Notes under the pieces: generated by a model | Databases searched by the model: none | Told to the model about the DNA's origin: nothing | What the model saw: the letters and a program-made list of their open reading frames with translations, nothing else | Translations under genes and position numbers: made by a program | Shown here: positions 11,086 to 58,278 of the stretch, piece by piece | How the letters are laid out: every line of letters starts with the position of its first letter | Position numbering within the stretch: position 1 is the first letter of the stretch | NCBI GenBank assembly: GCA_050253415.1 | Contig: JBFWJC010000002.1 | Coordinates: 64,001 to 128,000 of the forward strand | Reading direction: 5' to 3' | Origin: Pedobacter sp. | GTDB lineage: Bacteria; Desulfobacterota; Desulfuromonadia; Desulfuromonadales; Syntrophotaleaceae | DNA length: 64,000 nucleotides

Positions 11086-11432
11086 TGAAATCTCCTTCGA
11101 TCGAATGGATAAGTAGTCGATTGCGATTTCGTGATAATAGGATTGAAACGGTAAGAGGTCAAACAGTTTTTGGGCTTTTGGTACTTTCTGTATACGCCAT
11201 AGCGCGGAATGTAAGGGTTTGGAACAGAAAGATGGTTTGCCTGTCTGGTTGCCCGGCTCTGATAGTCGGAAGTTTCCAGTCGGGTATCGATTTTATATCG
11301 ATGCGAACCAGTGTTACAGAACCTTCAAGGCTGTGAACACATGCAAGCACCTTGCAAAAGGCCCCTGTACAAAAAAAGGAAAGGGGGCTGTTGCCCCCTT
11401 TCCCGGATGGTGCGCGAATGTATTTTGATAGC

Positions 11433-12440
11433 TTAGAGGTTGTCGAGAATTTCCTGCCTCTTGGCCTGGTATTCGTCTTCGCTGATAAGCTCTTCGTCTC
11501 GCAGGTCCTTCAGCCGGCGCAGGCGGATTTTGATGGAATCCGTTGCCTCGGTTTGGGCCGGTTGCACAATGGCGGGAGCGGCGGACGGAGCCTGTTTCAT
11601 GGACTTCATGTCTTGCTTCAAGGCTTCCAGTTCAGCACGCAGACGCTCCTGTTCGGCGCTGACCTGGGCGCTTTCCTGACGTACCTGGCTGGCTTCCTGG
11701 AAGGCTGCCTTGGCCGTTTCTTTGGCGGCCTGTTTCTCGGCACGAACAGCTTGCCAGAGTTTAGGGTTGGGATCCAGGATAAGCCAGTTATAGCGTTCGA
11801 TGTCGCCCTGTTTTTTTGTTTCAACGCCAGCTTGTTGAGAAACTCCCCAAGGTTCGGCCGGTTCCCAAGAGCGAGGGGCTTTGTATTTACGGCTGCCGGG
11901 CAGGAAAGGATGCATGCGGCGGTCTTCTTCTTCGTCATAGTCTTCGTGTAGGCGGCCCAGGATCAAGTTGAGTTTACCCTGGGAAAAAAAGATCCGGCCG
12001 GTGGTCACGGAACGATCATGGGAGAAAGAGACCAAGCCTCTGTGGATGCCGACAATAGCAAAGGCAACATCCTCTTTGGGGGTCGCTGCAGCCAAGGCCT
12101 GGCTGACTGCATCCTGCAGAATATTCAGCTCTGCAAAGGTAAACAGTGGTTCGCGCTTGTCCCGCCCGGGGTAATTTATTTCCAGGGTGCCAAGCATATC
12201 CCGAATCAGTTCCGGTTTCAGGGTGACCGGATGAGCGTTTTGCTCTGTTGGTTGCTCACCACGATCTTGCGGCTCCAAACGAACATATTGGTCCCGGTGC
12301 TTCCAGAAACTCTTTTGGGTGCCTGCTTGAGCATCGGGCAGTGCGATTGAAACATTTATTATCGCCAGGGCCAAAAACAACGCGGCGAGAGGTTTGACCC
12401 GGACGGCGGCAATCCGCCGAAAAACAGCGTATTTCTCCAT
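11433..12440 (-). CDS. SHOCT-domain secreted protein, paralog of 10141-11085
   Basis: Signal peptide; shares DQ(F/Y)VR.E.QDR, N.HP..L, LNLI.G.LHE, PGSRKY, Y.WLIL.P; C-terminal SHOCT. Confidence 0.8.
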   Translation of the reverse strand: MEKYAVFRRIAAVRVKPLAALFLALAIINVSIALPDAQAGTQKSFWKHRDQYVRLEPQDRGEQPTEQNAHPVTLKPELIRDMLGTLEINYPGRDKREPLFTFAELNILQDAVSQALAAATPKEDVAFAIVGIHRGLVSFSHDRSVTTGRIFFSQGKLNLILGRLHEDYDEEEDRRMHPFLPGSRKYKAPRSWEPAEPWGVSQQAGVETKKQGDIERYNWLILDPNPKLWQAVRAEKQAAKETAKAAFQEASQVRQESAQVSAEQERLRAELEALKQDMKSMKQAPSAAPAIVQPAQTEATDSIKIRLRRLKDLRDEELISEDEYQAKRQEILDNL

Positions 12441-40624: not shown

Positions 40625-42325
40625 TTAACTCTCCAGGCCTTTGCGCATAATCTGATGTCTCTGCCAATAGCGCCCCAGGGCGTCTTTGAGCTGCGACCGT
40701 TGTTTTCTGATTCCCGGCAGTTTTATCTTGGTGGTCTTGGCACCGAGCAACCCTTTTTCCGGGTGAATTATCTGGAGGATATCGCTACCGAAAGCATCTT
40801 CGTATTTCATGTTGGTCACGCTATCCCACGATAGAAGTTCATTTTCTTTTGGCAGGATCAGGCCCTTGTAACTTATGGTAATTCGCTTCCCGCCACGAAG
40901 CCCGAACTCCAGCGGCGGAAAATATTTGAGCACAATTTCTTCCTCGGATTCGTTCGCCGGCAGGAAACAATAGGCCAGTTTTTCCTCATGCGCCGAGGCA
41001 AAGCGGTTTTCGTAAAGCGCCCACAAAGCTTGTTCGATGTTGTCAGCGTTGGGAACATCGGGTATCCATGTGGTGTTTGCCGGCTGGGTAACGATCTGGC
41101 TGTAGTCTTGTTCGTTCACTTCAAAGCCAACGTTACGCATGCGTTCTCGCAGCGCAGGGTGAGAGTCGAAGGGGTGGGGGATGCTGGACTCACGCATCTC
41201 GTCGAGGAACTGCGCGGAAGCGGCATAGGGCGCTAAACCGGTAGCTATGCGATCGGCAATCTTGAGTTGGGACTCATGCCGATCTTCTTTGGCAAATAGT
41301 TTTTCCTCAATGACGTCACGGTAACGGGCGTAGCCGCTGATTTTGATCAAGGAGCGAACGAGCCCCTGTGCCGAAACCAAGGTGGCGGCAACATGGTCGG
41401 CAAGAAACTCGCGAGCGCGGCTATCGCGCTTGAGTGCAAACTCGAAGATCACCCGATACAGGCGAAGTACGTAGAAAGCAAGGATGGTGGCGCTTGCCGA
41501 GTACATCAAGGCACAATAAAAATCGTATTGGGCGAGTTTGGGGCCAAGCAGCGCGCTACTGGCTGTATCCCCGCCACGGAAGTGTGCCAATTCGTGCATG
41601 AGCACTGCATCGGCCTCACCGCGGTCGAGCAGGCGCAGCAAGGGTAAACTGACAAACAACGAGCGTCCGCTCAAAGTCCTGTCTTTGATACACAGCGGTG
41701 CTTCTGTGACGAAAAAATTCGTGTCGATACCCGCGACGATATTATCCGGAGGCGCTGTCCCGGCTTTTGCGGCCAGCTCGCGAACATGCGTCCAGATTGG
41801 CGAGGCATTACTTTCGTCGATCAATTCACCATCCAGGTTTGTAGCCTGGGGCACCTGTTTAAAAATGCAGACAACGGCGTGAAACACGCCCATGGCTGAG
41901 ATGATGGCGGCAATCCCGATCAGTTTCAGAAAATAGACCTTGAAAAAGAAAGCGGTAAGCCAAAAGGCCAACCAGACCAGCAACGCACCCTGTACAACGA
42001 TTTCGATAGCGCAGAACACCGTCAATAATCGCCACCCGGTCACGAAACTCAGATACTGCGTTCGGCGATTGGCAAACGCGGCGGCACCAAGAGAGCAGAT
42101 CGCTAGCAGCATGACAACCCCGGCAATCAAGATCGTCGTAGAGAGCTTGCCGGTGACCTGAAACTGCCACAAAGGCGAGAACGGCCTGGCGGCTATGTCG
42201 GTTGCCCCCGGAGGCAGGGCATAGCATACGAAGGACCATGCTATGAGAGGTACAAGGAACAGAGCCATCAAGGCTGATATGACGATCTTGATTAAATCTT
42301 TGCGCAGAGGGGCGGTGATGGACAT
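40625..42325 (-). CDS. M48 (HtpX/Ste24-like) membrane metallopeptidase
   Basis: N-terminal TMs; HELAH, REFLAD, SHP.L.ER. Confidence 0.85.
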   Translation of the reverse strand: MSITAPLRKDLIKIVISALMALFLVPLIAWSFVCYALPPGATDIAARPFSPLWQFQVTGKLSTTILIAGVVMLLAICSLGAAAFANRRTQYLSFVTGWRLLTVFCAIEIVVQGALLVWLAFWLTAFFFKVYFLKLIGIAAIISAMGVFHAVVCIFKQVPQATNLDGELIDESNASPIWTHVRELAAKAGTAPPDNIVAGIDTNFFVTEAPLCIKDRTLSGRSLFVSLPLLRLLDRGEADAVLMHELAHFRGGDTASSALLGPKLAQYDFYCALMYSASATILAFYVLRLYRVIFEFALKRDSRAREFLADHVAATLVSAQGLVRSLIKISGYARYRDVIEEKLFAKEDRHESQLKIADRIATGLAPYAASAQFLDEMRESSIPHPFDSHPALRERMRNVGFEVNEQDYSQIVTQPANTTWIPDVPNADNIEQALWALYENRFASAHEEKLAYCFLPANESEEEIVLKYFPPLEFGLRGGKRITISYKGLILPKENELLSWDSVTNMKYEDAFGSDILQIIHPEKGLLGAKTTKIKLPGIRKQRSQLKDALGRYWQRHQIMRKGLES

Positions 42326-42382
42326 GGCAAGGCTTCTCCCGTTTTTCGAGTTCTCTGGCTTCGTATTCAATGCTTGTTTTCT

Positions 42383-42552
42383 GGGGAAATTTAAAACTCA
42401 GGGACACTCCCCTGTTTTCTTTGGGTCACGTGATGTGGGTGTCCGGGGGCGACTATGCGAGCGATTATCGGCATGGGGGCAGGATAAAAGAAATCTAAAT
42501 TAGGGGCAATTAAATTTTATGTAAAATAGGGGGAGTGTCCCTGGTTTGTCCT
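42383..42552 (-). mobile_element. Internally deleted (MITE-like) derivative of the RAYT element at 45108-45869
   Basis: Same ends (cagggacactcccc / ggggagtgtccct), near-identical upstream region, and only about the first 18 transposase codons. Confidence 0.8.
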
Positions 42553-42590
42553 GGGAAATTGAGGGATACTCCCGAATGGCGCTGGTTTTC
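42553..42590 (+). repeat. REP-like repeat copy 1
   Basis: gggaaattgagggatactcccgaatggcgctggtttt; direct repeat at 44354-44390. Confidence 0.7.
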
Positions 42591-42667
42591 CTCTGCGGAA
42601 CGTCCCCTCTTGGCAAGTGAACTCCGAAGGCATATCTGGCGGCACAATGAGTCTCTGGGATGACCGG

Positions 42668-43246
42668 TTAGCTCAAAAGAAGCATGTCGGGCAAATTTTC
42701 AAAGACAAGTCGAACGTCATCGTATTGTTCGAGGACTCTTACGACTTCCGGATGCGGATTTGCCCATATTTCGGGTAAGTCCCGTTCTTCTCTGTCATGT
42801 ATCGAAAACGCAAGAGCCTCAACAGGAGGGGTGAATTTCGCATCAATCCCTGGCTTGTTGCCTCGGGCATCGATGCGGTACCATCCATATTCCTTTATGA
42901 ACACGGCGTTCAGTCCATGCAGGCAATATGGGGGCTCTTTATCATTCACAGATAAACGTTGATAACAGAGCCCAGTCGGGATTCCGTTTTTACGTAGCAG
43001 TGCTGCTAAAAGATGACTTTTGGCATAACAATAGCCTGTGCCGTAAAGCAGAACGTCCGAGGCGCGGCAAGTCACAGGGTTTAGTTTGTAATCCCAACTG
43101 TGCTTAATTTCGTCTCGAACGAATTCAAAGCAGCGTCGTATCAGGTCCTGTTCGCTCGAAGCCCCCTTCGCCAGTTGTGCTGCTTTTCGAATAATTTCAG
43201 GATTGTCAAAATCAATATATGTACTCTTTTGAAGATATTTATTCAT
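42668..43246 (-). CDS. Transglutaminase-like protein (putative gene cassette)
   Basis: GYCYAKSHL, HGLNA, IDARG triad motifs; stop codon lies within AGCTAAC (R'' box). Confidence 0.85.
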   Translation of the reverse strand: MNKYLQKSTYIDFDNPEIIRKAAQLAKGASSEQDLIRRCFEFVRDEIKHSWDYKLNPVTCRASDVLLYGTGYCYAKSHLLAALLRKNGIPTGLCYQRLSVNDKEPPYCLHGLNAVFIKEYGWYRIDARGNKPGIDAKFTPPVEALAFSIHDREERDLPEIWANPHPEVVRVLEQYDDVRLVFENLPDMLLLS

Positions 43247-43255
43247 AAGTGGCCT

Positions 43256-43352
43256 GGCTGACATGTGGGGTGAGGGGCGCGGGGGAGCCCAGTTCGGAAA
43301 AGGTACCATACCATTTTGTGGTCTTGCATCGACTGCATTGGCCTTGTCGGGT
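43256..43352 (-). other. Degenerate attC-like site between beta-lactamase and transglutaminase genes
   Basis: ACCCGAC..GTCAGCC variants of RYYYAAC..GTTRRRY; weak internal symmetry. Confidence 0.45.
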
Positions 43353-43354
43353 TT

Positions 43355-44230
43355 CTATCGATTTTTTAATAGAACATCGCAAGTGATTCGAGCTACATCA
43401 GCAATAACCGCACTTTTTGTGTCGTTGGAAGCGGCAGACCCCGTATAAAACACCGTGACAATGAAAGGATCAAGTCCTCTGGGAAAAACAATTGCAACGT
43501 CGTTGCTTGCTCCATTTCCCCCGCTTCCAGTCTTGTCACCGACTACCCAAAAATTGTCGAAACCCGCTCGGAGTTTTTTCGCCCCAGTCGTATTCCCAAA
43601 CATCCATGCCTTGAGTTGTTCTTTGGATGCGGGCGAAAGGTAATCACCCATCAAAATCTTATGGAGCGTTTCAGCCATCGCCTTTGGGGTGCTGGTATCA
43701 CGTAAGTCACCTGGTATGTTCGTATTCAAAGACGGCTCATTTCGATCTAAACGCGTTGTGTTGTCGCCGATGGAGCGAAGGTACTCTGTAAGTGCTTTGG
43801 GGCCACCTATCGCATCAAGGAGTAAGTTGGCAGCCGTATTGTCGCTGTATTGAATGGATGCGGCGTTCAATTCGGACACCGTCATATGTCCTGTACTTAG
43901 GTTGTCTTTTGTAATTGGCGCATACTCAAGAATATCACTTGATTTATAAGATATTGGTCTATCCAGAGCCTCCATATTTGTATCGACTCTGGACAGAATG
44001 GCAGCCCCTAACAAAGCTTTGAACGTACTGCACATCGCAAATCGCTCGTTTTCTCGATAAGAAAGAAGCGGTGTTCCATTAGCCGAAATGACCGAAACAC
44101 CAATCCGTCCACTACTTTCATTCTCAAGCGTTGAAATTCTAGATGTAAATTCTTTCGACGGAACCGGTTCTTCCGAAGCTAATGCCAGTGATGTGAGCAG
44201 AATCATAAACAAAGTTAAGACATATCGCAT
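43355..44230 (-). CDS. bla: Class A serine beta-lactamase (putative gene cassette)
   Basis: Signal peptide; CSTFK, SDN, EPSLN, KTG; GTTAGGT core site at 44269-44275 upstream. Confidence 0.95.
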   Translation of the reverse strand: MRYVLTLFMILLTSLALASEEPVPSKEFTSRISTLENESSGRIGVSVISANGTPLLSYRENERFAMCSTFKALLGAAILSRVDTNMEALDRPISYKSSDILEYAPITKDNLSTGHMTVSELNAASIQYSDNTAANLLLDAIGGPKALTEYLRSIGDNTTRLDRNEPSLNTNIPGDLRDTSTPKAMAETLHKILMGDYLSPASKEQLKAWMFGNTTGAKKLRAGFDNFWVVGDKTGSGGNGASNDVAIVFPRGLDPFIVTVFYTGSAASNDTKSAVIADVARITCDVLLKNR

Positions 44231-44353
44231 AAATTTGACTTCCTTGAGGGTAGAACGGTTTGGCCTAAACCTAACGAGCCTGTAGGAAAACCCCACAACT
44301 CTCTCGATTGATAAAAATCAGTCCCGGAATTTTATATCAAATCCATTTTTCTT

Positions 44354-44390
44354 GGGGGAAATTTAGGGATATCCGAATGGCGCTCGTTTT
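44354..44390 (+). repeat. REP-like repeat copy 2
   Basis: ggggaaatttagggatatccgaatggcgctcgtttt. Confidence 0.7.
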
Positions 44391-44557
44391 AAAAACAACA
44401 GGAACCCTTCGCATATTTTTCATTGCCACGAACCCTTGCTTGCGATAGCATCTCCGCCATTTCCAGCACTGCCGAATCATAGCAGCCGGTCACCCGCTCA
44501 TTTCACACGGCACGACAACGATCGCGCCGTAGCCTGTTTGCAGTTGAATTTCCTGAC

Positions 44558-45082
44558 ATGACCAACGACTCCTATATCACCTATCGCCCCATCGGCATCC
44601 TGCGATCCCCCTATACCCGGCGCATTGATGCACCTCATCAAAGCACAGTGGTGGAAGGCACTGAAACCGGAGCGTTGGCCACAGCTACCCTGGAACTTCA
44701 GGATTGGCTGGACGAGAAAGTCATCCAAGATCTGGCCGGCTTCGAGCGACTTTGGCTCATCTTCGACTTTAATCGGAGTGAAGGCTGGAAAAGCAGCGTC
44801 AAACCGCCCCGGGGTGGACCGAAGCGGGGTGTTCTGGCCACCCGCTCCCCTCATCGTCCCAATTCCATCGGCCTTTCGGCGGTGGAATTGGTCAAGATCG
44901 AAGGCAGGACGCTGCACCTTCGCGGCGTGGATCTCCTGGATGGCACCCCTGTTCTGGATATCAAACCCTACGTGCCCTACGCGGACGCCTTTCCCGACGC
45001 CAAGGCCGGCTGGATCGACGATCTGGATGAAAAGCTGGGACGTCATTCCGCGCCAGGACCTCGCAGGCCCAGGGGTGGGTAA
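44558..45082 (+). CDS. trmO: tRNA (t6A37)-methyltransferase TrmO/TsaA
   Basis: GVLATRSPHRPNSIGLS, DLLDGTPVLDIKPY. Confidence 0.92.
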   Translation: MTNDSYITYRPIGILRSPYTRRIDAPHQSTVVEGTETGALATATLELQDWLDEKVIQDLAGFERLWLIFDFNRSEGWKSSVKPPRGGPKRGVLATRSPHRPNSIGLSAVELVKIEGRTLHLRGVDLLDGTPVLDIKPYVPYADAFPDAKAGWIDDLDEKLGRHSAPGPRRPRGG

Positions 45083-45107
45083 GAACGCTGTCGTGGCCTT
45101 GCCTATC

Positions 45108-45869
45108 GGGAAATTCAGGGACACTTCCCTGTTTTCTTTCTGGCCTTCCTAGTTTACTCAACCTCAATACTTGATTCAGTTGCAGTTCCATTTTTTCAAT
45201 AAATACATCTGATCCGAAGGGGCGTCCTGATCTGGTAGCTTTGCGTAGCAAATTTTCTGTTTGTTCGTCTTCTTGCGACACAAATCTGGCGTAGGCTTCC
45301 CTGTTATCCAGAGAGAGCCAAGAAGGCTCAGTCAGCAGGTCATCCTTTGTACCGTTAATATGAGTTTTTGCACTGGACCAGCGATAAATTTCTGCCCTGT
45401 CGGCAAGTCCTGCTTTCACCGGATTATTTTCGATGTAGCGTGCAACAGACCAGAGGTATGCGTCATCTTCAACGATGCAGGAAAAAAAGCGATTCTGCCA
45501 AATTCGACCACCCTGTTTCAACTTTCGATTCAAGTATTGGGTATAGACCTGAGTAGTCAGGCCGACGCCACGTGAAAGGGAGTCTTCCTTATCGGGAACC
45601 GCAAGAGGTGCACATGGTTGTCCGTCAGACAGTAGGCCCAAAGTTGTAAAGAGTGCCGCCTAGAGTATTTATGAAGGAGTTTCAGATAAGTATGGCGATC
45701 CTCATCATCGAAAAAGGTCACAGGGCGATTGTTGCCACGTTGGGTCACGTAATGTGGGTGTCCAGGGGCGACTAAGCGAGCGATTCTTTTCATAGAGGAA
45801 GGATAAAAGAAATATAAATTAGAGGCAATTAAATTTTATATAAAATAGGGGGAGTGTCCCTAATTTTCC
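45108..45869 (-). mobile_element. REP-associated tyrosine transposase (Y1/HUH) element 1, frameshifted
   Basis: ORFs 45557-45793 (VTQRGNNR, NHVHLL) and 44961-45641 (WQNRF, YIENNPVKAG) join by a 1-nt shift near 45605; terminal IRs ggaaattcagggacacttccc / ggggagtgtccctaattttcc. Confidence 0.88.
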
Positions 45870-45973
45870 TACAACGACACTGATGAAGGGCGACGGCACA
45901 CCGTGACAGACAGCACCGCATTTTTCGGGCAGCAGCCAGGCCCCTTTCGTCCCGCTCGATCAATTGGTTAGAC
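45869..45973 (-). other. attC site
   Basis: Minus strand GTCTAAC...GTTGTAG with imperfect internal dyad; directly abuts the RAYT IR. Confidence 0.7.
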
Positions 45974-46547
45974 GATTACTTTAAATGCAAGAAACAGTTC
46001 TTCTTCCGGCACAAACTTATGCAAGGTTTTGCTCAAAATGGTTATTGAGTTAAAGCATTTATTTACTGTTTCCTGCCCGTTGGTTAAGTAGTCTGACTAC
46101 ATTTTTAGCAAGGCTTCGGCGTCAATTTCGCCGTTTCTGAACGGTATCGCCTTAGATTTTGGATGTATAAGCTTGTTTTGTATTTTGAATAGAAAGTCTA
46201 GGGTTTCGTATGCTTGCTGGTCTTTCGGAAAGTCTTTCCTGCAATCATTTTGATTAAAACTATGCATTTAGAGAATGTATCGAGTTTGTCGATATGTTTA
46301 CTAAAAAAGGAATCGCCCCAATTTATGGAAGCGTAATCGTTGACAAAAGATTCTAGGTCCATTGCAGTGAAGACAATCGTTTTTATGCCAGAGTTCTCTC
46401 TGGATTTTCCTATTTCGAAATAAAGGTAAGAATCTTCTTCTAGGGTTGGCTCACGGTCTAGTGAAAATGACTCATCAAAAAAATTTTTTCACTTGAGGGA
46501 AATTTTATATAGGTCCACCAGAAAGAATTTTATCTTGCGTAGCTCAT
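45968..46547 (-). pseudogene. Decayed HEPN-like cassette gene
   Basis: Manual translation SGIKTIVFTAMDLESFVNDYA...IQNKLIHPK with two stops and frameshifts; resembles 54214-54834. Confidence 0.7.
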
Positions 46548-46559
46548 AATTATTCTTTC

Positions 46560-46642
46560 GTCTAAAGCCGCCAACACGTGCGGCCTTAGAGTGGAGGCGA
46601 ATCCGAAACGGAAAGACCGTCACGTACTTGGCATTGTTATGC
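46560..46642 (-). other. attC site (G of R' box mutated to T)
   Basis: GCATAAC-aatgccaagtacgtg...cacgtgttggcggc-TTTAGAC. Confidence 0.75.
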
Positions 46643-46712
46643 TGCTTGCAGACAATATTATTCTATGAAAATAGGAAAATAACGGCCAAGCATCTTAGCC
46701 AGTTTAAAGAAG

Positions 46713-47453
46713 TCATGATTTCCTAAACACTAAAACATTTGATCTAAACAATTTAAAAAGAAAAGAAATTACTTTGCTATTGCACGCTAAGGAGTATTTC
46801 CCAGAGCGGTAGTACTTTAATATCAAACTTCCGTGATTTCCTAAGTACTCAAAACCGCTTTTTTCAAATGCCTCAACAATAGCGCTATTACTTCGATATT
46901 CAGTGTATTTTCTCACATACTGTAAGGCTTCTTCAGGATTAGTTTTGAATTTCTCTCTAAAAAATCCAAATCTAGCACACATATTATAATAAATCTTATT
47001 TTTTAATATTCCACCGAACGGAACTCCTACATGAGGCTCAAGAATAGAGTATTTGGAAGGAAAGTAGTGTATTACTAATCCACCTGTTCTAAGTATGCGT
47101 GAATTTTCAGATATAAAATCATCAATGTTTTTAACATGCTCTAGCACAGCTCTGCTAGCCACAACGTTAAATATACAATCTTCGAAAGGCCAAATATATT
47201 GATCTTCCGAACTTCGAATGCTTGATCTAGAGGTAGCCGACATTCTAATCTTTTTGATGTAGCCCTCATCCAGCAGTTTTTTTGTATGCGGTCCTAGTTT
47301 AAATTCAACGTCCGTACCGAAAGTCGTATAACCCTTTTTTTTCAACTCTATGACGTTTCCGCCGTTCCCACAACCTACATCTAGGATTGAAATATCGTGT
47401 TTGCTAGTATTTGCATAGGATCGAATTAGCTCCTCTAAAATTTCAAGGTACAT
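46713..47453 (-). CDS. Class I SAM-dependent methyltransferase (cassette)
   Basis: ILDVGCGNG, VLEHV, RILRTGG; AT-rich, bounded by attC sites. Confidence 0.85.
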   Translation of the reverse strand: MYLEILEELIRSYANTSKHDISILDVGCGNGGNVIELKKKGYTTFGTDVEFKLGPHTKKLLDEGYIKKIRMSATSRSSIRSSEDQYIWPFEDCIFNVVASRAVLEHVKNIDDFISENSRILRTGGLVIHYFPSKYSILEPHVGVPFGGILKNKIYYNMCARFGFFREKFKTNPEEALQYVRKYTEYRSNSAIVEAFEKSGFEYLGNHGSLILKYYRSGKYSLACNSKVISFLFKLFRSNVLVFRKS

Positions 47454-47510
47454 GCTTTCTTATTCCATAAAATATATTTTAATTACGCACTTGGCGCATT
47501 GAAAAACTTA

Positions 47511-47625
47511 GCACAACGGTTCATGATAACTGGCGGCGACGAATTGTTCGAACAACACCGCAATTTAGTTTTGCTTTTCAATTTAGCGCAGACGTATTTT
47601 CCGTCGGTTGATTAGTTTGTTAGCC
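47511..47625 (-). other. attC site
   Basis: GGCTAAC...GTTGTGC with dyad symmetry; homologous to 54110-54227. Confidence 0.8.
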
Positions 47626-48243
47626 CAATGGAATGTTTTGCAAAAGAGAATTTAGTGACTTTGAACCTGTAGGGCTGAGTAGCCATATGAAACCAAATAA
47701 GTTCAAAACCACGGTTACCCAAAATATGAATCTGAAGGATTCTTTTTTTGTCTTATGTCGTAAATTTTGCTGAGCGACTAATGCACCAGGCCAACCGCCA
47801 GCTAATGAAAACTTGTGCAAAGTGCTTTCCTGGATTCTCCATTTGCCTTTTTTGGAAGCGGACTTGTCCAATGCGTAGGCAATATATGTGAGGATGCTTA
47901 ACGATATGTAAATAATAAGGATGTGTATTGGAAGCTTCCCGCTTAGCACCGTAGCTGCCACAGTTCCCATAAATAGTATCGCTAATGCAAATGGAAATTT
48001 AGCCGAACTTTTGTTTTCGTACCTAACAGATCTTTCCTCTGCGCGAGTTGCGTTTATGGCACATTGACGACCTTTTTTGTCTATGGATTCACTGTAATTG
48101 ACTTTTTGACCGATCTCGGGTTGGCGGTAACGGTTGCTGAAGTCTTTGATATGGACAAAGATTTGTTTTCCACCAGAAGCGGGTAAAATAAAGCCGAATC
48201 CTTTGTCTTTGTTCCACGACGCGATGGTCCCTCTTTTTCTCAT
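47620..48243 (-). CDS. Cold-shock domain + DUF1294 protein (cassette)
   Basis: WNKDKGFGFI, IFVHI; DK.A....WRI.E.TL, GGWPGA, RHKT.K..F; stop within the R'' box. Confidence 0.9.
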   Translation of the reverse strand: MRKRGTIASWNKDKGFGFILPASGGKQIFVHIKDFSNRYRQPEIGQKVNYSESIDKKGRQCAINATRAEERSVRYENKSSAKFPFALAILFMGTVAATVLSGKLPIHILIIYISLSILTYIAYALDKSASKKGKWRIQESTLHKFSLAGGWPGALVAQQNLRHKTKKESFRFIFWVTVVLNLFGFIWLLSPTGSKSLNSLLQNIPLG

Positions 48244-48259
48244 ATCATTTTCTTTTAAG

Positions 48260-48338
48260 GGCTAACGTTAAGTTCACCGACGGCGTTCACGCCGTCCGAG
48301 CGTAGCGCAGCAAAGCGGTGTGCAACGATTGGTTAGCA
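48260..48338 (-). other. attC site
   Basis: TGCTAAC-caatcgttgcacaccg...cggtgaacttaac-GTTAGCC, clear dyad with extrahelical base. Confidence 0.85.
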
Positions 48339-48395
48339 AATTTTATTAATGGTTGCACTTGTTGATGTTTAATCACTATTTATCATTTTTAGAAA

Positions 48396-48688
48396 ATTTA
48401 TAATAAATTACAAAGCTAAATAGTGAAACTATCAATAAAGACAAAAATGAAAGTAAGCGACTTTTTGAGTAGTAAACTCTGGCAAGCTCCATTTGACTTT
48501 GCGTTGAATAATATGTTACCCAAGCATCACTTTCGATAAACCCAATGGAGTATTTGCTTCTATTTATTTGCCGAACTTCAAAGCCTCTACCTTCTTATCT
48601 CATCCCCTTTGAGTCCTGTCTTTTCAGCCATTGAGACAATTCATCTCTACCTGGAAATCGCTGTTGGTTTGCTGGGTTTGTGGGGTTT
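48396..48688 (-). pseudogene. 5'-truncated cassette ORF remnant with internal stop and C-terminal TM
   Basis: Manual translation ..FPGRDELSQWLKRQDSKGMR*EGRG...LLSFLSLLIVSLFSFVIYYKFSKNDK*; cut by the RAYT-2 end. Confidence 0.5.
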
Positions 48689-49616
48689 GGGGTCGGACCA
48701 AGCTAACCTGTTGAATCCATAAACAAAATATCAAGAAAATAGCTGTTATTCGAGCTTAAAACCACCTTTTGGGGACCAAAATCAACCCTGTAAGGTTCAG
48801 ATGCCTCCCTCAACACACATCGGTCGGCCTCTAGTTGCTCGATTTTTCTTCCCAGCCCCTGCCTACCAAGCCTAGTCTTTATATCTTCAATAAATCCCAT
48901 ACCACCAACAGCGATACTCTCAGTCCAGAAACTTTCCCTTTGATGATTTCTGTCGCTAATGGCCGCATCGACCCATTGCCGGTGCTGCCTGGAAAACTCC
49001 TTGGAGTCCGAAAATCCGCAAAGGTTCCTTAAGCCCGCCTGGTCAATCACACCATACCGTTCAGGCGGATTCTGGATCTCGTTGTAGCCACACATATCCC
49101 ATTCCGATGGATGATTCACCACACCAGCGCGGACCATGTTGAGGTCCATATAAACAAGGCATCTGACAAGGTGTTCATTCCGCTCAACAGCTGTAGCGTG
49201 ATAACGGTCTTCCCAGAACGCTCCCTTGCGCTTTTTGCGTTGATTGAATTCTTGGGCGGTTCGGCTGGCAATCAGTTGCAGGCTTTTTGGAATGACATCC
49301 GGGCTATCATCAATGACCAATAGATGGATATGATTGGACGTGACGACATAATTTAATATTCTCAAGCCAAAGCGTTTCTTGGCTTCAAACAGCCAGGACT
49401 TCCAACGTCTTCTGTCCTTGGCGAATTTGAGGAGGAACTCTTTTTTATGGCAACGATGGGTGATATGCCATACCTGCCCGGGAATATGATGTCGGTTTGC
49501 TCTTGCCATTCTTAGACATCTCTTTTTGCCAGTGAAAACGCGTCGCTAAGATCAAATAAAGGGAAAAATAAGCCTATTTTCCGAATCATTACAGTTGTTT
49601 AGCTTGGTCCGGCCCC
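48689..49616 (-). mobile_element. REP-associated tyrosine transposase element 2 with 18-bp terminal inverted repeats
   Basis: ggggtcggaccaagctaa / ttagcttggtccggcccc (17 of 18 match); no target duplication seen. Confidence 0.85.
48703..49509 (-). CDS. RAYT / Y1 HUH transposase, apparently intact
   Basis: HITHRC, NHIHLL (HUH), FWEDRYH, YMDLNMVRAG. Confidence 0.9.
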   Translation of the reverse strand: MARANRHHIPGQVWHITHRCHKKEFLLKFAKDRRRWKSWLFEAKKRFGLRILNYVVTSNHIHLLVIDDSPDVIPKSLQLIASRTAQEFNQRKKRKGAFWEDRYHATAVERNEHLVRCLVYMDLNMVRAGVVNHPSEWDMCGYNEIQNPPERYGVIDQAGLRNLCGFSDSKEFSRQHRQWVDAAISDRNHQRESFWTESIAVGGMGFIEDIKTRLGRQGLGRKIEQLEADRCVLREASEPYRVDFGPQKVVLSSNNSYFLDILFMDSTG

Positions 49617-50387
49617 GACAAAACCGCTTTCTACACTTAACATTCGATCTAGCAATATTTTGTGAATGGCAGAAATTGCCATTTCGACCATTATTGCCAT
49701 CTTACCGATTTCGAGATTTAGATCGTCACTATAATCTAATATTTGCAATGCTAATATTGCACGATTGCAACTGTTTTTTAAGTCATGTAACCGACATCTT
49801 TCATCCGTTTTAAGGGTAGCGGATCGAACTGCATAAAACTCCTGTGCAGCCAGGAACAATTCTTCAATTATTTTAAAGGTATGCTTTAATTCGCGTCGAT
49901 TCAAAAGTATAGTGTGATCATGTCGAAATTGGAGATTATATGCCTTGAAATAGGCATTCCTTAGATCTGTCCATGCTGTCAAAATTGATTCTTCAGAGAT
50001 TGCAGTTCTGATATCTTCAATAGTACAATTAGTGTCTTGCTTAGAAACTATTATATGTAATCTTGTGTTAAGAGGAATTGGTAAGGACAAATAGTTAAGT
50101 GATATTAGTAAAGGATGCGCTTTGTATTGTGATTTAATTAACTCATCAATATCATCTTGAGTTATATTAAGAATTTTAAGTGACTGTTTAGCCACAAGGG
50201 AATATTTAAAGTATGTATCCATTGAGTTTGTTGGTTTACTTATTTGTTGTTCGACTTTATTTTTTGTAGCCTTTAAGGCGCGACGTCTTAAAAATTTCAA
50301 GAAATAAGAGGATGCAGAGACGACTAATACTGTCCCTGCACCGCTAAATATCCAGTCCTTTGCGTCAATAACCCAATCAAGTGACAT
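49599..50387 (-). CDS. Hypothetical cassette protein with N-terminal TM; 3' end supplied by RAYT-2 IR
   Basis: KDWIFSGAGTVLVV N-terminal anchor; final GAGPS* encoded by the IR. Confidence 0.7.
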   Translation of the reverse strand: MSLDWVIDAKDWIFSGAGTVLVVSASSYFLKFLRRRALKATKNKVEQQISKPTNSMDTYFKYSLVAKQSLKILNITQDDIDELIKSQYKAHPLLISLNYLSLPIPLNTRLHIIVSKQDTNCTIEDIRTAISEESILTAWTDLRNAYFKAYNLQFRHDHTILLNRRELKHTFKIIEELFLAAQEFYAVRSATLKTDERCRLHDLKNSCNRAILALQILDYSDDLNLEIGKMAIMVEMAISAIHKILLDRMLSVESGFVGAGPS

Positions 50388-50440
50388 TTAATCACCTCTC
50401 GCCAATATTGACAAATTCATTCCATACTCATAGTCTTATT

Positions 50441-50556
50441 GTTTTAGTACCAAACTTACCGGCGGCAATGGAGCGCAGGAAACGTCCCTGAATTCCTCAC
50501 TGCGGCAAATTTGGAGCGCAGCGGAAAGTTTGTCCGACACCAGCGCATTGTTATGT
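50441..50556 (-). other. Chimeric or interrupted attC containing a REP-like motif
   Basis: ACATAAC left arm, then ggaattcagggacgtt, then a different attC-like right arm. Confidence 0.6.
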
Positions 50557-50567
50557 GAGGTTATCAC

Positions 50568-51428
50568 TCAGGCCACCTCTACCATCAGTGCTAAACACAT
50601 AATTCTTTCCCAATGGTTCACAAAGGGCGCAGCATCAATTGCGGGCTGCAAAATGGTGCTTTTTGCAACCTCAAGCTCCAATGGTATTTGCAACAAAGCT
50701 TGAATTTGCGCTAAATAAGTAACCAGCCTTGGGCCAGCCTCTTTTGAGAACCTTAAGTCTAAATTAAAATCATTAAAGTGTTTTTTTACTCGAAGTTTTT
50801 GGGTATCCTCCCAATGTTCTGGAGGTCTAACGAAGTACTCAATAACCCCAGGTTCACCGCCTGTATCTGCTGTATATCGAGCAAATATCCACTGCTCGTT
50901 GAAATACCGATCGTTATCCAAATATGGTTGAAGTACTTGTTCTGCTTCACTAGTGGCAAAGTTCTCTCCTTTGCCATCCATGTTGCAGTCTCTGCACGAG
51001 GGCACCAAGTTGACCGGCAATACCGAAAATTGTGGGTAGTGCGCTTTGGGCAGGAAATGATCCAAGTTTCGAGGGCGGCCGATACCACCGCAAAAAGGAC
51101 ATTTCTCGTTGGCCGCAGCCATCAAGGCATTATAAATTACGCGGGCAGGTTTATCCTCTTTTACAAAGTAAGTGCTATACAGCTTTAACAGATCCGATTT
51201 CTTTAGCTGCCCAACAACAACTGGGTCATGATCCCGGCCATTAGGAGTCGAAGGTATAGTGTACAGTTCTCCTCTAGAGGCTGACGCGGTATAGCCAACT
51301 GCACTAGCTTGCAAAAGGTGCATGTCGTTATCCACTTTTTGCAGTAATTCGTCATTGCCTGTGATTCCTTGGCGACACATTTCAATTACTTGCTCACTTG
51401 AATAAGCAGGTTGTTTAAGCTTTAACAT
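50568..51428 (-). CDS. HNH endonuclease (Septu PtuB-like)
   Basis: CPFCG...LDHFLPK...NLVPSCRDCN; TGATG coupling to the ATPase. Confidence 0.85.
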   Translation of the reverse strand: MLKLKQPAYSSEQVIEMCRQGITGNDELLQKVDNDMHLLQASAVGYTASASRGELYTIPSTPNGRDHDPVVVGQLKKSDLLKLYSTYFVKEDKPARVIYNALMAAANEKCPFCGGIGRPRNLDHFLPKAHYPQFSVLPVNLVPSCRDCNMDGKGENFATSEAEQVLQPYLDNDRYFNEQWIFARYTADTGGEPGVIEYFVRPPEHWEDTQKLRVKKHFNDFNLDLRFSKEAGPRLVTYLAQIQALLQIPLELEVAKSTILQPAIDAAPFVNHWERIMCLALMVEVA

Positions 51429-52945
51429 CAACCTGCGCTCCTATCGCGATGCGTTACAAGTGCTTTCAATAACGCACGCGCTTCTAAACCAAGTTGGTTG
51501 TTATATTCGTTCACTATCTGTTGGTATGAGCTTCCTCTCTCGACAGACTTTACCAATAAATCGTGAAAACCTGACTTCACCACTTCAAGCCCAAACACCT
51601 CTCTGGTTAAGACGCCAACATTTTCACCAAATGTCTCGATATCAGGTCTGCGCGGATCAGTGACCATACCAACCAGATTAATTTTCCAGGCACTAGACCT
51701 AGGAACTTCTTGCAGCACAACGGGTGAGTGTGTGGCTATAATTGACACACCATTTCGGTCATGAAGTAGTTCAGATAAAGCGCGAATAAAAGCTGATAGC
51801 AATGGTGGGTGAAGATGACTTTCTGGCTCATCAATAAGAACCAAAGTTTTTTCTTCAACGGTGGCAACTAGTCGAGTGATGGTTAGCAACACCACAGCAT
51901 GACCAGAGCTCATTCTTCTGATCGTTTTGTGCGCTTTTTTCGTTAGCTCCTCGCTGGAGAATTGAGTAAGGCCCTTCAATCCCATGCTTGCAAAATTTTC
52001 ATCTGATTCCAGTGTATCTATCGCTTTTAACCACCTATCGCGCTTAGAAATTTGACTAAAGCAAGATTTTAAAGCCTGGAGAAAGTCCTGGTGTATATCA
52101 TAAAGCCCCTTGAGAGTGTCACCTCCCTTTTTCAGTCCTATATAAAAATAACATGTCCCCAGAGAAGGATCTGGTTGTTCCATGGGAGGTTCAAAAGGGT
52201 CAAAAGCACTAAATGACACAGATACCAAACTACTGAAATAATCGGTATCAATAGGGCTGGCATGACAGCCCTCAACATCATAAAACTTGGCCTCTGACTG
52301 ACCTTTACTAGTGATGGCTTCGATCATCCCATTGAGGAGAGTTGTCTTGCCTACACCATTCCGGCCTATAATTGCATGAATATTAGTGCTCGGCCTTGAT
52401 TCAACCTCCACCTTAAACTTCAATTCGATACCAGAAATTTTATCTTTCCTGGGTCTAACAAACTTGAACTCAAAATTTGTCAGTGGGGGAAGGCAAGCCA
52501 ATACCCTAGAATACTGCCCTTTAATGACAGATAAGCTGACACCTCTCAGCAAGGAGGTTCGAAAAACTTCCTCCTCTTGAGCAAGCTCAATCAACTCAGG
52601 AGTTAAAACGATGTCTTTTAATGCTGTGAGTAATTTATTTCTGAACTGTACTGGCAAAGAAGATATTTTTTTGTAATAGTCAACATCTTGACCCACAGAA
52701 AAATACCCATCAGGCAACTGCTGGAAGGAATTGCTTAGTAATGAGTAAGTTGTTTTTTCTTTTGTTTGACCTTTAAAGCCAATTTTTACATTACCAAGGT
52801 CATGGAGAGACCCCTTATCGTCATGTAATTCTAGGTAAAACATGGTTACAAACGAGAAGTCATTCCAGTGGTCAATGGTTAGATAAGCAGTATTCAACCC
52901 AGACGGAGGAGTTTTTGCATCTCTTGGCAAAATAATAAAGTTCAT
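51428..52945 (-). CDS. ABC-type ATPase (Septu PtuA-like)
   Basis: GRNGVGKT, MSSG, LIDEPESHLHP, ATHSP; no TM partner gene. Confidence 0.88.
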   Translation of the reverse strand: MNFIILPRDAKTPPSGLNTAYLTIDHWNDFSFVTMFYLELHDDKGSLHDLGNVKIGFKGQTKEKTTYSLLSNSFQQLPDGYFSVGQDVDYYKKISSLPVQFRNKLLTALKDIVLTPELIELAQEEEVFRTSLLRGVSLSVIKGQYSRVLACLPPLTNFEFKFVRPRKDKISGIELKFKVEVESRPSTNIHAIIGRNGVGKTTLLNGMIEAITSKGQSEAKFYDVEGCHASPIDTDYFSSLVSVSFSAFDPFEPPMEQPDPSLGTCYFYIGLKKGGDTLKGLYDIHQDFLQALKSCFSQISKRDRWLKAIDTLESDENFASMGLKGLTQFSSEELTKKAHKTIRRMSSGHAVVLLTITRLVATVEEKTLVLIDEPESHLHPPLLSAFIRALSELLHDRNGVSIIATHSPVVLQEVPRSSAWKINLVGMVTDPRRPDIETFGENVGVLTREVFGLEVVKSGFHDLLVKSVERGSSYQQIVNEYNNQLGLEARALLKALVTHRDRSAG

Positions 52946-52976
52946 TTTTTAACACTACTTATTATCGGTGAATATC

Positions 52977-53079
52977 ACATAAATAATTGGTTTAAGCGGC
53001 AGCCCACCGCAGAACAAACTGGTTGATACTATTAGGGAAGTCCCCCGCTTCTTCTGTCCGCCTGAAATTCTTGTTAGCT
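52977..53079 (-). other. attC site (G of R' box mutated to T)
   Basis: AGCTAAC-aagaatttcaggcgg...ccgcttaaaccaatta-TTTATGT. Confidence 0.75.
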
Positions 53080-53083
53080 TTAC

Positions 53084-54085
53084 TTATTCCCAAGACTCGC
53101 CATTTAATTTGTTTGCTAGGTCCCTCGAATTAGTACATTCACCCACTAAACCATAAAAATACTTTTTTGATTGAAACATGCCCCCACTTGAGACTTTTCT
53201 GAAGTTTGTTTCTGAGCCATTAGACAGAATAAAAACTTGGAGGGGGGTCTTTTCGTTTTCTGCGGTCCTGTGCGCAGATGCGCTGATATGACCAATTGCA
53301 ATCTCTTCCAGTTTTTTATTTGATATATCTTTGTTTTTCCACTTCAACTTGACGTTTGACATATTTACGTCAACTGAAACAACCGCATCTATTTCGTATA
53401 TTTTTGATACGTTTTTATTGGCGTATGGGCCAAAGAACTTGGCTCGCCGATGTCTATAGGCCCCACCTTTGTCTGGGCACATATATGCTCCATTTTTAAC
53501 CTCATGTAGAGTTCCTCTGCAATTTACTACTTCCAAAAGTTTTTTCCATCTAGGCAAGCGTCCACTTCTATCTAAGTAGTTTTCGAACTCTTCAAGGTGG
53601 CTTTTAAAAACATCAGAAGACCGCGCTCCTTTTAAGCATTTCATAAATTCTTCAAAAGAAATAGCCTGTAGAATTATGCCTGACTCCTGCGCCACTGCTC
53701 TATCTTTAGAGAATCTTTCTTCATATTCTTCTGTTTGAAAATTTGATATTAGGAAAAGGATTTTTGTGCCGTTCTCAGAGCTAAGGCCATCAATATGCCT
53801 CTTAATCTGGCTTGAATAAAACCAGTCGGTGAGTTTTGTTTCGAAAAATATGGAAAAAGCCTTTTGGCTAATTGAAAGGTCCGGAATACTTTTTACCTCT
53901 TTATGTTGCTGGGCAAATGTTGGCCCTACCATTAGGTCAACATCACCAGATACCATTGATGTGATGGTTTCTTCGAAACTTGCTGGATTCTCAGAATAGA
54001 GCAACTTAAGAATGAGACCACAGTAATTAGTAAGTGAATTCTCTTTTTGGCGATAATCAGAAAAGAGTGAAATTTCTCGCCCCAT
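53084..54085 (-). CDS. Putative PD-(D/E)XK nuclease-domain protein (cassette)
   Basis: ENSLT helix, then IPDLSISQKAFSIFFETK (PD...ExK); start set at MGREI after the attC. Confidence 0.65.
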   Translation of the reverse strand: MGREISLFSDYRQKENSLTNYCGLILKLLYSENPASFEETITSMVSGDVDLMVGPTFAQQHKEVKSIPDLSISQKAFSIFFETKLTDWFYSSQIKRHIDGLSSENGTKILFLISNFQTEEYEERFSKDRAVAQESGIILQAISFEEFMKCLKGARSSDVFKSHLEEFENYLDRSGRLPRWKKLLEVVNCRGTLHEVKNGAYMCPDKGGAYRHRRAKFFGPYANKNVSKIYEIDAVVSVDVNMSNVKLKWKNKDISNKKLEEIAIGHISASAHRTAENEKTPLQVFILSNGSETNFRKVSSGGMFQSKKYFYGLVGECTNSRDLANKLNGESWE

Positions 54086-54109
54086 TTTTTTCCTTTTAAT
54101 TGTTTTGAA

Positions 54110-54227
54110 CGCTAACTGTTTATGATAACCGGCGGCGACGAACTGCTCGAACACCACCGCAATTTTAGATTTTGTTTCTCAATTTTGCACAGAAGCGTTT
54201 TCCGGCTGGTTGATTATGTTGTTAGGT
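54110..54227 (-). other. attC site
   Basis: ACCTAAC-aacataatcaaccag...ccggttatcataaaca-GTTAGCG. Confidence 0.82.
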
Positions 54228-54834
54228 TTTTCATTTTCAAACCAATGTCAGCATCTAAAGTTTTTAGATTTTCAATTATAAATTCAATGTCTTCTATTGT
54301 TTCTTCTACAGAAATTTCAGACGGGTGCAAAGTGACAAAGTCTTTCATTCTTTTGGAGTAAAACTCTTTTGTTTTTGGGTGGACAAGGCTATTTCTTTTG
54401 TCAAATAACTTTCTTGTCCAGTTTAATAATTCGTCATTTTTTTTAAGTTTTACCTCGAGACACATTAATAAGATTAACGACAGTTTTTCTGTAATGCCTA
54501 CACGCTCTAGATTCCTTTTGTAAAATTCACTACCAAGTCTCACTGCGCCGTAGTAATTTATTAAGCCTTCTACAGTCATGCATGCAAACAAAATTGAAGA
54601 TGTTGCGTATCTGTAGGCTTCTTCTCGTAGCCTATCGGTTTTGTAGCAAACAAATGATTCAATATTTTCCTGTCCAATGTCATAATTTTCTTTTCTTATT
54701 TTTTCCTCTTCTTCCGACAGAGTGGCTAATAATTTATTGTATTCATCTTTAAACTTGTACGCGGACTCATAATAAAAACGATGGGAACTTACCCACGCAC
54801 CGTCGGTGGCATAGGGGCGAATGTTTTTTGTCAT
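54214..54834 (-). CDS. HEPN-like protein (cassette)
   Basis: Helical; SSILFACMTVEGLIN followed by RNSLVH (Rx4H). Confidence 0.65.
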   Translation of the reverse strand: MTKNIRPYATDGAWVSSHRFYYESAYKFKDEYNKLLATLSEEEEKIRKENYDIGQENIESFVCYKTDRLREEAYRYATSSILFACMTVEGLINYYGAVRLGSEFYKRNLERVGITEKLSLILLMCLEVKLKKNDELLNWTRKLFDKRNSLVHPKTKEFYSKRMKDFVTLHPSEISVEETIEDIEFIIENLKTLDADIGLKMKNLTT

Positions 54835-54842
54835 ATTTTAAA

Positions 54843-54946
54843 AGCTAACGTTGTGGTAACCGGCTGCGTCGTGCCGGAACAAATTAGTAGAGACCTTTAC
54901 GGGAGTCGCCCCTGTATCACCAGTCCGGTTGACCTATTGGTTGGGA
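54843..54946 (-). other. attC site
   Basis: TCCCAAC-caataggtcaaccgg...ccggttaccacaac-GTTAGCT. Confidence 0.82.
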
Positions 54947-58222: not shown

Positions 58223-58278
58223 TGAACAACACACCTGTTTATGTGGCGTGCGTGGGTATTCTTTTGTGGACACATGGT

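Follow-up and report, generated by a model that had tools for sequence, protein, structure and literature searches.

How has a complete beta-lactamase gene come to lie between two short direct repeats, close to an integron-type cassette array, in the genome of an environmental bacterium? The question is raised by a stretch of DNA of 64,000 nucleotides (positions 64,001 to 128,000 of the forward strand of contig JBFWJC010000002.1, GenBank assembly GCA_050253415.1), which we refer to as the window and in which positions are counted from the first letter. The gene, designated bla here, encodes a class A serine enzyme and is accompanied by a transglutaminase-like gene; both lie on the minus strand and together they make up a two-gene module of 1.8 kb within 42553-44390, with the direct repeats L37 and R35 at its left and right ends (Table 1). 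An initial annotation of the window had described bla as an integron cassette that might be moved either by an integron integrase (IntI) or by a transposase of the RAYT type, i.e., a tyrosine transposase associated with repetitive extragenic palindromes (REPs). We consider it probable that bla is part of an acquired module with REP-derived direct repeats, situated in a variable island, that is not an integron cassette now and that is joined or lost at REP-type sites. In what follows, G000 is the genome of the window (4.1 Mb), and G002 to G006, G010, G052, G074 and G183 are other genomes of the same order.

The beta-lactamase gene and its product

The bla open reading frame (ORF) extends over 43355-44296 on the minus strand and begins with GTG, and the probable start, as read by eye, is the ATG at 44233, which has AGGAAG just 5' to it and is also the start codon of the copy in G006. 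The translation contains the class A motifs that the initial annotation had pointed out, namely STFK (Ser70-x-x-Lys73), SDN (Ser130), R164-N-E166-P-S-L-N170 and KTG (Lys234). In an alignment of the protein with 39 relatives of 51-85% identity, STFK, SDN, R164, E166, N170 and KTG are invariant in all 40 sequences; Asn165 is near-invariant within the protein's own clade in the same alignment. To the eye, the N-terminus resembles a Sec signal peptide with the end ALA/S. The protein scores well over the cut-off of NF033103, the generic class A model of NCBI (326.7 bits, cut-off 200), and is matched by Pfam Beta-lactamase2 at 149.8 bits, and none of the named class A families reached its own cut-off among the best 25 of the 102 families matched. 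The best named family is SED/CdiA (279.3 bits, cut-off 580), CTX-M gives 273.6 bits (cut-off 570), and the cut-offs of the PAD, PEN, BKC/GPC and BEL families are likewise not reached. With the generic model alone over its cut-off, the enzyme falls into no named family, and to that extent the earlier suggestion of a possibly novel gene is supported.

An AlphaFold model of the protein, built from the alignment described above, has a mean pLDDT (predicted local distance difference test score) of 89.3, and low confidence is confined to the signal-peptide region and the omega loop, in which residues 166-169 fall below 50. The omega loop (residues 161-179) is the sole internal region of low confidence. 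Foldseek comparison of the model with class A structures gives TM (template modelling) scores of 0.94-0.96, and identity to the solved structures is 52-54% for reconstructed ancestors, 46-47% for BEL-1, 42-46% for GES and for TEM-1 with its variants, and 44% for a CTX-M-14 mutant, in agreement with the sequence search. Taken together, motifs, family scores and predicted fold show bla to be a complete and intact class A beta-lactamase gene, with a predicted exported product, from an unnamed environmental lineage. By analogy with the family, the product would acylate beta-lactams on Ser70 in the periplasm, and Glu166 and Asn170 would then activate the water that releases the hydrolysed drug. A strict scan upstream of bla found no sigma-70 consensus promoter, and because the scan was strict this is not evidence that the gene is silent.

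Distribution and acquisition

The distribution of bla is sparse at every level at which we have looked at it. Within the genus the gene occurs in one of six other genomes, G006, with 96% identity and at the same locus, and four of the five genus genomes that lack it are at least 90% complete. Among 41 related genomes, two were found to encode its protein, one of them being G000, and five of the order's 233 genomes, G000 again among the five, have a match over the cut-off of the class A model; the class A copies in G052 and G074 are only 42-44% identical to bla. The initial annotation had named near identity to a vertically inherited enzyme of the genus as the finding that would tell against it, and a gene found in one of six other genus genomes, in an order where five of 233 genomes have any class A match, does not have that pattern. 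The closest named relative, at 96%, is encoded by a metagenome-assembled genome (MAG) of a Pelobacter sp. (locus L014), in keeping with the environmental anaerobe that had been proposed as host, and the next named relatives are those of a Moraxellaceae MAG (77%), Paraglaciecola arctica (75%) and a Burkholderiales MAG (71%); unnamed metagenome proteins related to bla have 95, 86, 85 and 84% identity. The G+C content of bla is 45.2%, against 57.4% for the core flanks and 52.9% for the genome.

The most informative of 42 metagenome loci encoding bla relatives is L093, a contig of 198 kb and 43% G+C, whose bla copy has 88% protein and 89% DNA identity to the gene in the window. The DNA likeness between the two is limited to 43350-44279. 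It starts at GCTCGTTA, 4 nt upstream of a GTTAGGT heptamer, so that about 48 nt of leader are held in common, and it fades within about 35 nt downstream of the bla stop codon. Only bla of this contig matches G000 and G006, and its flanks gave two short matches (74% and 69% identity) in other families, and nothing more, among the 233 genomes of the order. No Pfam-recognisable mobile-element gene was found near bla of L093 among 10 ORFs scanned within 4 kb. A transglutaminase-like gene, trmO or RAYT gene, such as accompany bla in the window, lies beside bla relatives at none of the 42 metagenome loci and at one of 44 genome loci (L014), and a repeat search across three loci of bla relatives found no repeated intergenic element. 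These comparisons show a gene that is not vertically inherited in the genus and that was acquired horizontally as a very tight fragment, made up of the ORF, a leader of about 48 nt and a trailer no longer than about 35 nt. Copies of 89% DNA identity in unrelated genomes, with no recognisable mobile element in common, point to recent movement of bla as an unusually tight fragment, and the gene would add an uncharacterised class A lineage, hosted by an anaerobic Desulfuromonadales-type organism, to the environmental resistome.

Integron recombination sites

An integron cassette carries an attC site at its 3' end, and the initial annotation had placed a degenerate one after bla. We looked for such sites with two covariance models, R1, made from 14 aligned attC sites of the complete integron on contig C1 of G000, and R2, made from 31 attC sites from three loci and run with filters off. 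R1 recovers 15 attC sites in the C1 array and six in the window, all between minus-strand ORFs, and R2 scores the same six at 37-98 bits with nothing else over 11 bits across 36000-59000; over both models the six window sites range from 27 to 100 bits. On the minus strand of 42000-45866, which contains the module, neither model with filters off gave a match, and plus-strand noise in coding sequence reached at most 6.8 bits. The candidate attC stretches fold no better than their shuffled versions (z +1.83 after the transglutaminase-like gene, -0.87 between the two genes and -0.80 upstream of bla), and GTT is absent from the 90 nt that separate bla from the transglutaminase-like gene. Since bla of L093 and bla of the window have no 3' sequence in common, bla does not travel with an attC site. 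These comparisons did not confirm the degenerate site, nor did they support the description of bla as a cassette: no attC adjoins bla or the transglutaminase-like gene, and none is common to the window and L093. The heptamer after which bla had been said to start is indeed present; the window has 78 GTTRRRY motifs where 111.6 +/- 10.9 would be expected, and at this chance level GTTAGGT carries no weight alone.

Beside other relatives of bla, no attC was found in 17 genome loci, in 10 of the 42 metagenome loci, or in L015-L018, L062, L063 and L066-L068, and because the models are specific to the genus this says little about attC sites of other types. The sole match near any bla relative, in L014, has 16.6 bits (E 0.32) and is a weak site also present in G006. 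A generic attC finder (RYYYAAC...GTTRRRY plus folding) was dropped when it did not separate the known C1 sites from background. A preprint (10.1101/2022.09.11.507474) concerns the insertion of cassettes outside att sites by IntI; as a route for bla this was set aside, for it would still leave an attC and there is none here. A search of the literature on Pelobacter, beta-lactamase and integrons returned no title concerning this gene. As far as these searches go, then, bla carries no integron recombination site of its own.

The direct repeats

The repeats that the initial annotation saw around bla and the transglutaminase-like gene, which it gave as about 37 bp, are real and are the only such pair in the genome. 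L37 and R35 are identical at 33 of 37 aligned columns, with two mismatches, a 2-nt gap and a core of 18 nt. A short-word BLAST search of all 4.1 Mb returned two full-length copies in all, the best further match of each being the 18-nt core of its partner and the remainder being of chance size, 12-20 nt. Each repeat is a composite. The first half (GGGAAATTnAGGGAtA) is the REP found on either side of the neighbouring RAYT gene (45105-45140 and 45845-45875) and, in tandem copies, in G006; the relation to RAYT ends that had been claimed for the repeats is borne out by GGGAAATTnAGGGA, which both have in common with these flanking REPs. The second half (GAATGGCGCTnGTTTT) is identical to the 16 nt with which each of the two terminal inverted repeats begins in an IS4-type element (IS, insertion sequence) of 1.55 kb that occurs in G003 and G005, and the likeness ends after those 16 nt.

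Hairpins predicted for L37 and R35 are weak (-2.5 kcal/mol, z 0.0, and -0.5 kcal/mol, z +1.4) in comparison with the genuine REP at 45105-45140 (-7.2 kcal/mol, z -4.3). With weak hairpins and two copies, L37 and R35 look like decayed derivatives of REPs and not like working REPs. A third solo site with a REP and a tail lies at C2:218130 of G000. We found no matching IS4-type transposase in G000 and no inverted partner of the L37/R35 tail in the window. The G003 copy of the IS4-type element encodes a DDE_Tnp_1 transposase (PF01609, 92.5 bits), and in the two full copies examined all four ends adjoin a REP hairpin. The loci of this element are L081 (G003:C30:2900-4900), L082 (G005:C1:2853000-2855000) and L073 (G010); its terminal repeats begin GAATGGCGCTAG, and the ends examined are preceded by ...TCC or ...TCCC, mostly inside a REP hairpin, which suggests that the element may target REPs or that its ends may reach into REP-like sequence.

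The island and its junctions

Core synteny with the genus stops near 36712 and resumes at 58276. The two core edges are 90 bp apart in G004 and 3.5 kb apart in G002, so the intervening 21.6 kb can be regarded as a variable island. It occupies a hot spot between the gene for a 372-aa ORF and an M23 peptidase gene, where G005 holds a different cassette array. The G005 array at the homologous locus is integrase-less and comprises at least 10 attC sites; bla, the transglutaminase-like gene and trmO are absent there.

Identity to G006 amounts to 96.2% in the block 42609-45111 and to 94.9% in the RAYT element, and it is 81-94% in the DNA around them that the two genomes share (87.6, 93.7, 87.8, 81.2, 85.3, 89.7 and 90.1%). 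The likeness to G006 sets in 20 nt to the right of L37. In G006, R35 is retained with a single mismatch and the left REP has no tail. To the left of the module, G006 (L013 5935-8069) has genes for transporters of the major facilitator superfamily (MFS) and the small multidrug resistance (SMR) family, and G000 instead has an M48 peptidase gene. G006 also contains a segment of 387 bp (L013 10885-11272) that is absent from G000 and consists of tandem direct REPs around about 270 nt of A+T-rich DNA; at that place, which lies between trmO and the RAYT gene, only one REP is present in G000. This difference in presence or absence amounts to a gain or a loss at REPs within the same block.

Contigs assembled from public sequencing runs (no raw reads) were compared with 42300-46000 at 88% likeness, and interpretation is confined to those parts that have contig cover. 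Runs labelled as landfill, sediment and shale-gas metagenomes contain the stretch in whole or in part, and no RNA dataset is listed among the public runs that contain it. The contigs of run X4 have the G006 arrangement and are not independent of it. In X2 and X3, both from sediment, the left side is of the G000 type and R35 has two extra C residues, so that it reads like L37; one X2 contig diverges at 42562, inside L37. X5 (shale gas) includes a contig of 2257 nt over 42524-44434 in which the first 16 nt of L37 are missing. Contigs of X2 and X3 that hold trmO without the module diverge at 44392, one base past the outer edge of R35, and have one foreign sequence in common on the left. The summed depth in these two runs is about 82-388 for trmO (44408-45151) versus about 0.5-20 for bla and the transglutaminase-like gene. 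One contig of X5, of depth 157 and with a shorter side of 43 nt, joins 42383 to 44392 and so skips both genes, both repeats and the deleted RAYT copy that adjoins L37. The breakpoints in G006 and in the metagenome contigs fall at or near the outer edges of the repeats. The contigs are short, and we therefore treat the junctions as leads, which would fit modules delimited at the repeats together with an allele that lacks the module.

Weighing the explanations

The module sits just beyond the distal end of the cassette array, separated from it by an extra trmO and a broken RAYT element. Under the explanation that we favour, the repeats would mark junctions at which recombination between REP-type sites has brought modules together or removed them. 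One possible route is integration, in the Campbell manner, of a circle with a single repeat, and a possible alternative is deletion between the repeats; IntI would not be the agent, and RAYT transposition is a candidate at most. Several observations pull the other way and should be set against this explanation. The attC models were trained on sites of the genus, so a very divergent or eroded attC could escape them. The module is oriented like the array, which is 1.6 kb away, there is no consensus promoter upstream of bla, and the G+C content of the module (45-46%) is nearer to that of arrays (40-42%) than to that of the core (57%). A homologue of the transglutaminase-like protein is flanked by attC sites in G183, and the stop codon lies in AGCTAAC in the window gene and in GGCTAAC in the G183 homologue. 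The X5 joint is one short contig at 88% likeness, known by its two sides and not by the letters in between, and the left repeat varies among carriers, with no tail in G006 and with its first 16 nt missing in X5.

A rival explanation is that the array once ended in bla and the transglutaminase-like gene, as separate cassettes or fused into a single one, and that their attC sites were eroded or overwritten by REP and IS-end sequence; IntI would once have moved them and could not do so now. This has in its favour the genuine same-strand array that ends at 45866, the G183 homologue (70% identical) with attC on both sides, the stop codon within GCTAAC as in G183, the array-like G+C content, the CGTTAGG that lies 35 nt upstream of the bla ATG and the missing consensus promoter. 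We nevertheless think it unlikely, given that no attC rises above noise and the stretch after the transglutaminase-like gene has z +1.83, that the bla 3' sequence is not common to the 89% copy in L093, that GTTAGGT and the 4 nt upstream of it lie inside the leader common to L093, that attC sites occur at one of seven examined loci of transglutaminase-like homologues, and that an opposite-strand trmO and the RAYT element intervene between module and array. At the other extreme, bla might be an ordinary native chromosomal gene around which the repeats are a coincidental local cluster of REPs. Its presence in G006 at the same locus with 96% identity and the local abundance of REPs can be cited for this, yet it is hardly credible for a gene that is not found in five of the six other genus genomes, that resides in an island missing from G004, that has a G+C content 12 points under the core flanks and an 89% copy in an unrelated contig, and that belongs to a block 96.2% identical to G006 where the flanking DNA is 81-94% identical.

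Two further explanations each invoke a transposase. The module might be a REP-flanked unit that is moved by a RAYT-type Y1/HUH transposase, with L37 and R35 as its ends and an intact RAYT, such as that of G006, acting in trans. L37 and R35 do go back to the REP family found on either side of the RAYT gene and are like-oriented, which is the geometry of the ends recognised by IS200/IS605-type enzymes; moreover, the REP copy number has changed between G000 and G006 inside the 96%-identical block, RAYT fragments are found at several places in G000, and breakpoints fall at the repeat edges. Mobility by RAYT, one of the two routes offered in the initial annotation, nonetheless strikes us as very unlikely: the adjacent RAYT gene is broken by frameshifts in G000 where the G006 copy is intact, the L37 and R35 hairpins are weak beside that of a genuine REP, and both carriers, G000 and G006, have the module at the same locus, so that no second insertion site has been seen. 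RAYTs, moreover, are portrayed in PMC5581495 as for the most part single-copy, vertically inherited and housekeeping-like. Alternatively, the tails might be solo ends left by an IS4-type element, of the kind intact in G003 and G005, that formerly lay beside the module or brought it in and has since been lost by deletion. In favour of this, GAATGGCGCTnGTTTT matches the terminal 16 nt of the 1.55-kb element, whose G003 copy has a DDE_Tnp_1 gene, the 4/4 full-copy ends adjoin REP hairpins, and there is the third solo site at C2:218130. Such a relic seems quite unlikely, however, when the tails are direct and not inverted, and cannot serve as the two ends of a transposon, when G000 is without such a transposase and the likeness ends after 16 nt, and when the transposase matched, among the loci searched, only L073, the end of an IS copy that does not adjoin bla.

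A bolder reading can be imagined. REP-type repeats with an IS-end-like tail would serve, in the manner of attachment sites, as junctions for small modules without promoters where an integron array decays. They would belong to a second cassette-like system of Pelobacter, based on hairpins or repeats and driven by a RAYT or some other recombinase, which would have captured bla and could insert or delete it as a unit. We offer this as a speculation of low probability, and equally doubtful, taken jointly with it, is the corollary that the placement of RAYT elements beside attC (in G000) and between attC sites (in G005) would reflect a mechanistic link between two machineries that act on single-stranded hairpins.

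Comparison with known systems

The product of bla resembles the known class A enzymes, among which BEL-1, GES, TEM-1 and CTX-M are the nearest natural solved ones, in fold, catalytic motifs, predicted export signal and length (about 290 aa), and differs from them by its 42-47% identity, its sub-cut-off family scores and the near-invariant Asn165 of its clade. The class A genes of the GES, BEL, VEB and CARB types are cassette-borne. Like them, bla is compact, has no consensus promoter, is on the strand of an array 1.6 kb away and shares its genome with a complete integron; it differs in having no attC at its 3' end and no 3' sequence in common with a close copy. For the present, the enzyme counts as an ordinary new member of the class A family, and it is the mobile context that is unusual and only partly explained.

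In the account of Cury et al. (2016, PMC4889954), clusters of attC sites without an integron-integrase are termed CALIN, and the neighbouring array is of this kind, with six attC sites, no intI in the window and intI elsewhere in the genome; the likeness is that of the neighbouring array and not of the bla module, and a RAYT element adjoins the last attC here. In two accounts of REP/RAYT systems (PMC5581495, PMC3184786), a tyrosine transposase gene is flanked by inverted REPs. The RAYT gene of the window is likewise flanked by inverted REPs, and L37 and R35 come from the same REP family, but G000 departs from these systems in its broken RAYT gene, partial copies, weak hairpins and IS-like tail, and the carriage of cargo genes between REPs is not among the properties described for them. 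A comparable organisation is that of the integron mobilization unit, in which two copies of a miniature inverted-repeat transposable element bracket blaGES-5 (Poirel et al. 2009, as described in PMC3184786). Both have short non-coding repeats around a class A gene near the remains of an integron. The integron mobilization units as presented there have elements of 288 bp with terminal inverted repeats, and their transposition was shown, whereas the bla module has direct repeats of 35-37 nt and is a candidate for mobility only.

What makes the locus worth attention is that an integron array, a RAYT/REP system and the relics of IS ends meet within 4 kb, and that the borders of the module coincide with short repeats. 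If the repeats are recombination sites, they would represent an overlooked route for resistance genes, one that is invisible to screens based on attC sites and insertion sequences.

The cassette array and other neighbouring features

Table 1. Positions of the module, its repeats and the neighbouring features in the window.
Feature	Position	Strand	Remarks
Variable island	36712-58275		about 21.6 kb, from synteny with the genus; holds module, trmO, RAYT and array
Internally deleted RAYT copy	42383-42552		REP, 127 nt of RAYT 5' end, inverted REP; directly left of L37
Left direct repeat L37	42553-42589	+	37 nt; decayed REP and 16-nt IS4-type-like tail
Transglutaminase-like gene	42668-43264	-	cysteine peptidase superfamily; start uncertain (43246, 43264 or 43309)
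Class A serine beta-lactamase gene (bla)	43355-44233	-	292 aa; NF033103 match, catalytic motifs, model
GTTAGGT heptamer	44269-44275	-	35 nt upstream of bla ATG, within leader common to L093
Right direct repeat R35	44356-44390	+	35 nt; same composition as L37, 2 nt shorter
Extra trmO (tRNA methyltransferase)	44558-45082	+	TIGR00104 123.1 bits, cut-off 93.25; 59.4% G+C
RAYT element	45105-45875	-	REP, frameshifted Y1/HUH transposase gene (about 45115-45817), inverted REP
Integrase-less attC cassette array (CALIN)	45866-54946	-	six attC; starts 1.6 kb from bla
attC	45866-45973	-	R1 and R2
attC	47508-47625	-	R1 and R2
attC	48257-48338	-	R1 and R2
attC	52975-53079	-	R1 and R2
attC	54107-54227	-	R1 and R2
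attC	54840-54946	-	R1 (100.4 bits) and R2

The transglutaminase-like protein matches Transglut_core (PF01841) at 52.5 bits, and its gene is 98% identical in G006. Homologues of 36-72% identity are present in 27 of the 233 genomes of the order, G000 included, and the G183 homologue, with an attC directly upstream (L087 1383-1492) and another downstream (2077-2183), is a true cassette. Six of the seven homologue loci examined with the genus attC models have no such site.

The RAYT gene is matched by NF047646 and PF01797 in two pieces. In G006 it is one intact ORF of 234 aa, and two single-base gaps split the G000 copy. The inverted REPs of the element are at 45109-45129 and 45849-45869. In the deleted copy to the left of the module, 42421-42547 is 88% identical to 45740-45866, and an inverted repeat, I8, joins 42399-42412 and 42530-42543; partial or distant copies of RAYT are present at several other places in G000. 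In the window (45840-45975) the last attC has GTTG at its crossover end, after which the outer REP of the RAYT element begins at a distance of 1 nt, and at the homologous locus of G005 (L083 16880-18909) a RAYT element has an attC site on each side. In this genus, RAYT elements thus appear to reside within cassette arrays, and narrow literature searches returned no description of such an arrangement.

The extra trmO has about 71% DNA identity to the other trmO copies in the genus, and it looks like a separately acquired module. Its summed depth in sediment and shale-gas contigs is far above that of bla. The flanks of contigs that contain the trmO stretch, 44392-45140, diverge at 44392 and at 45100-45139, where there are REPs on either side.

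No intI gene was found among the ORFs of the window, and none of the 12 matches to TIGR02249 in the genome falls there; with six attC sites on one strand, the array is thereby a CALIN. A complete integron is present on contig C1 of G000 (C1:1750302-1759659, L058), with an IntI of 447.6 bits (cut-off 265) and at least 15 attC sites up to the contig end, and IntI is over its cut-off in six of the seven genus genomes, G000 included, with none at this locus. With a six-attC array that starts at 45866 and a complete integron on C1, the instinct of the initial annotation to look towards integrons was well founded. The cassettes of the array include those for a methyltransferase (46713-47453) and a CSD-DUF1294 protein (47620-48243), and the region of the latter has 87% identity to a stretch of G004 that lies about 3.4 kb away from an IntI gene. 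A multi-gene stretch of 4.6 kb within the array contains a second Y1 transposase gene (48703-49509) and a gene for an AAA_21 ATPase (51428-52945). In the complete integron, L058, a stretch of 300 nt is present twice at 100% identity (11430-11729 and 15528-15827).

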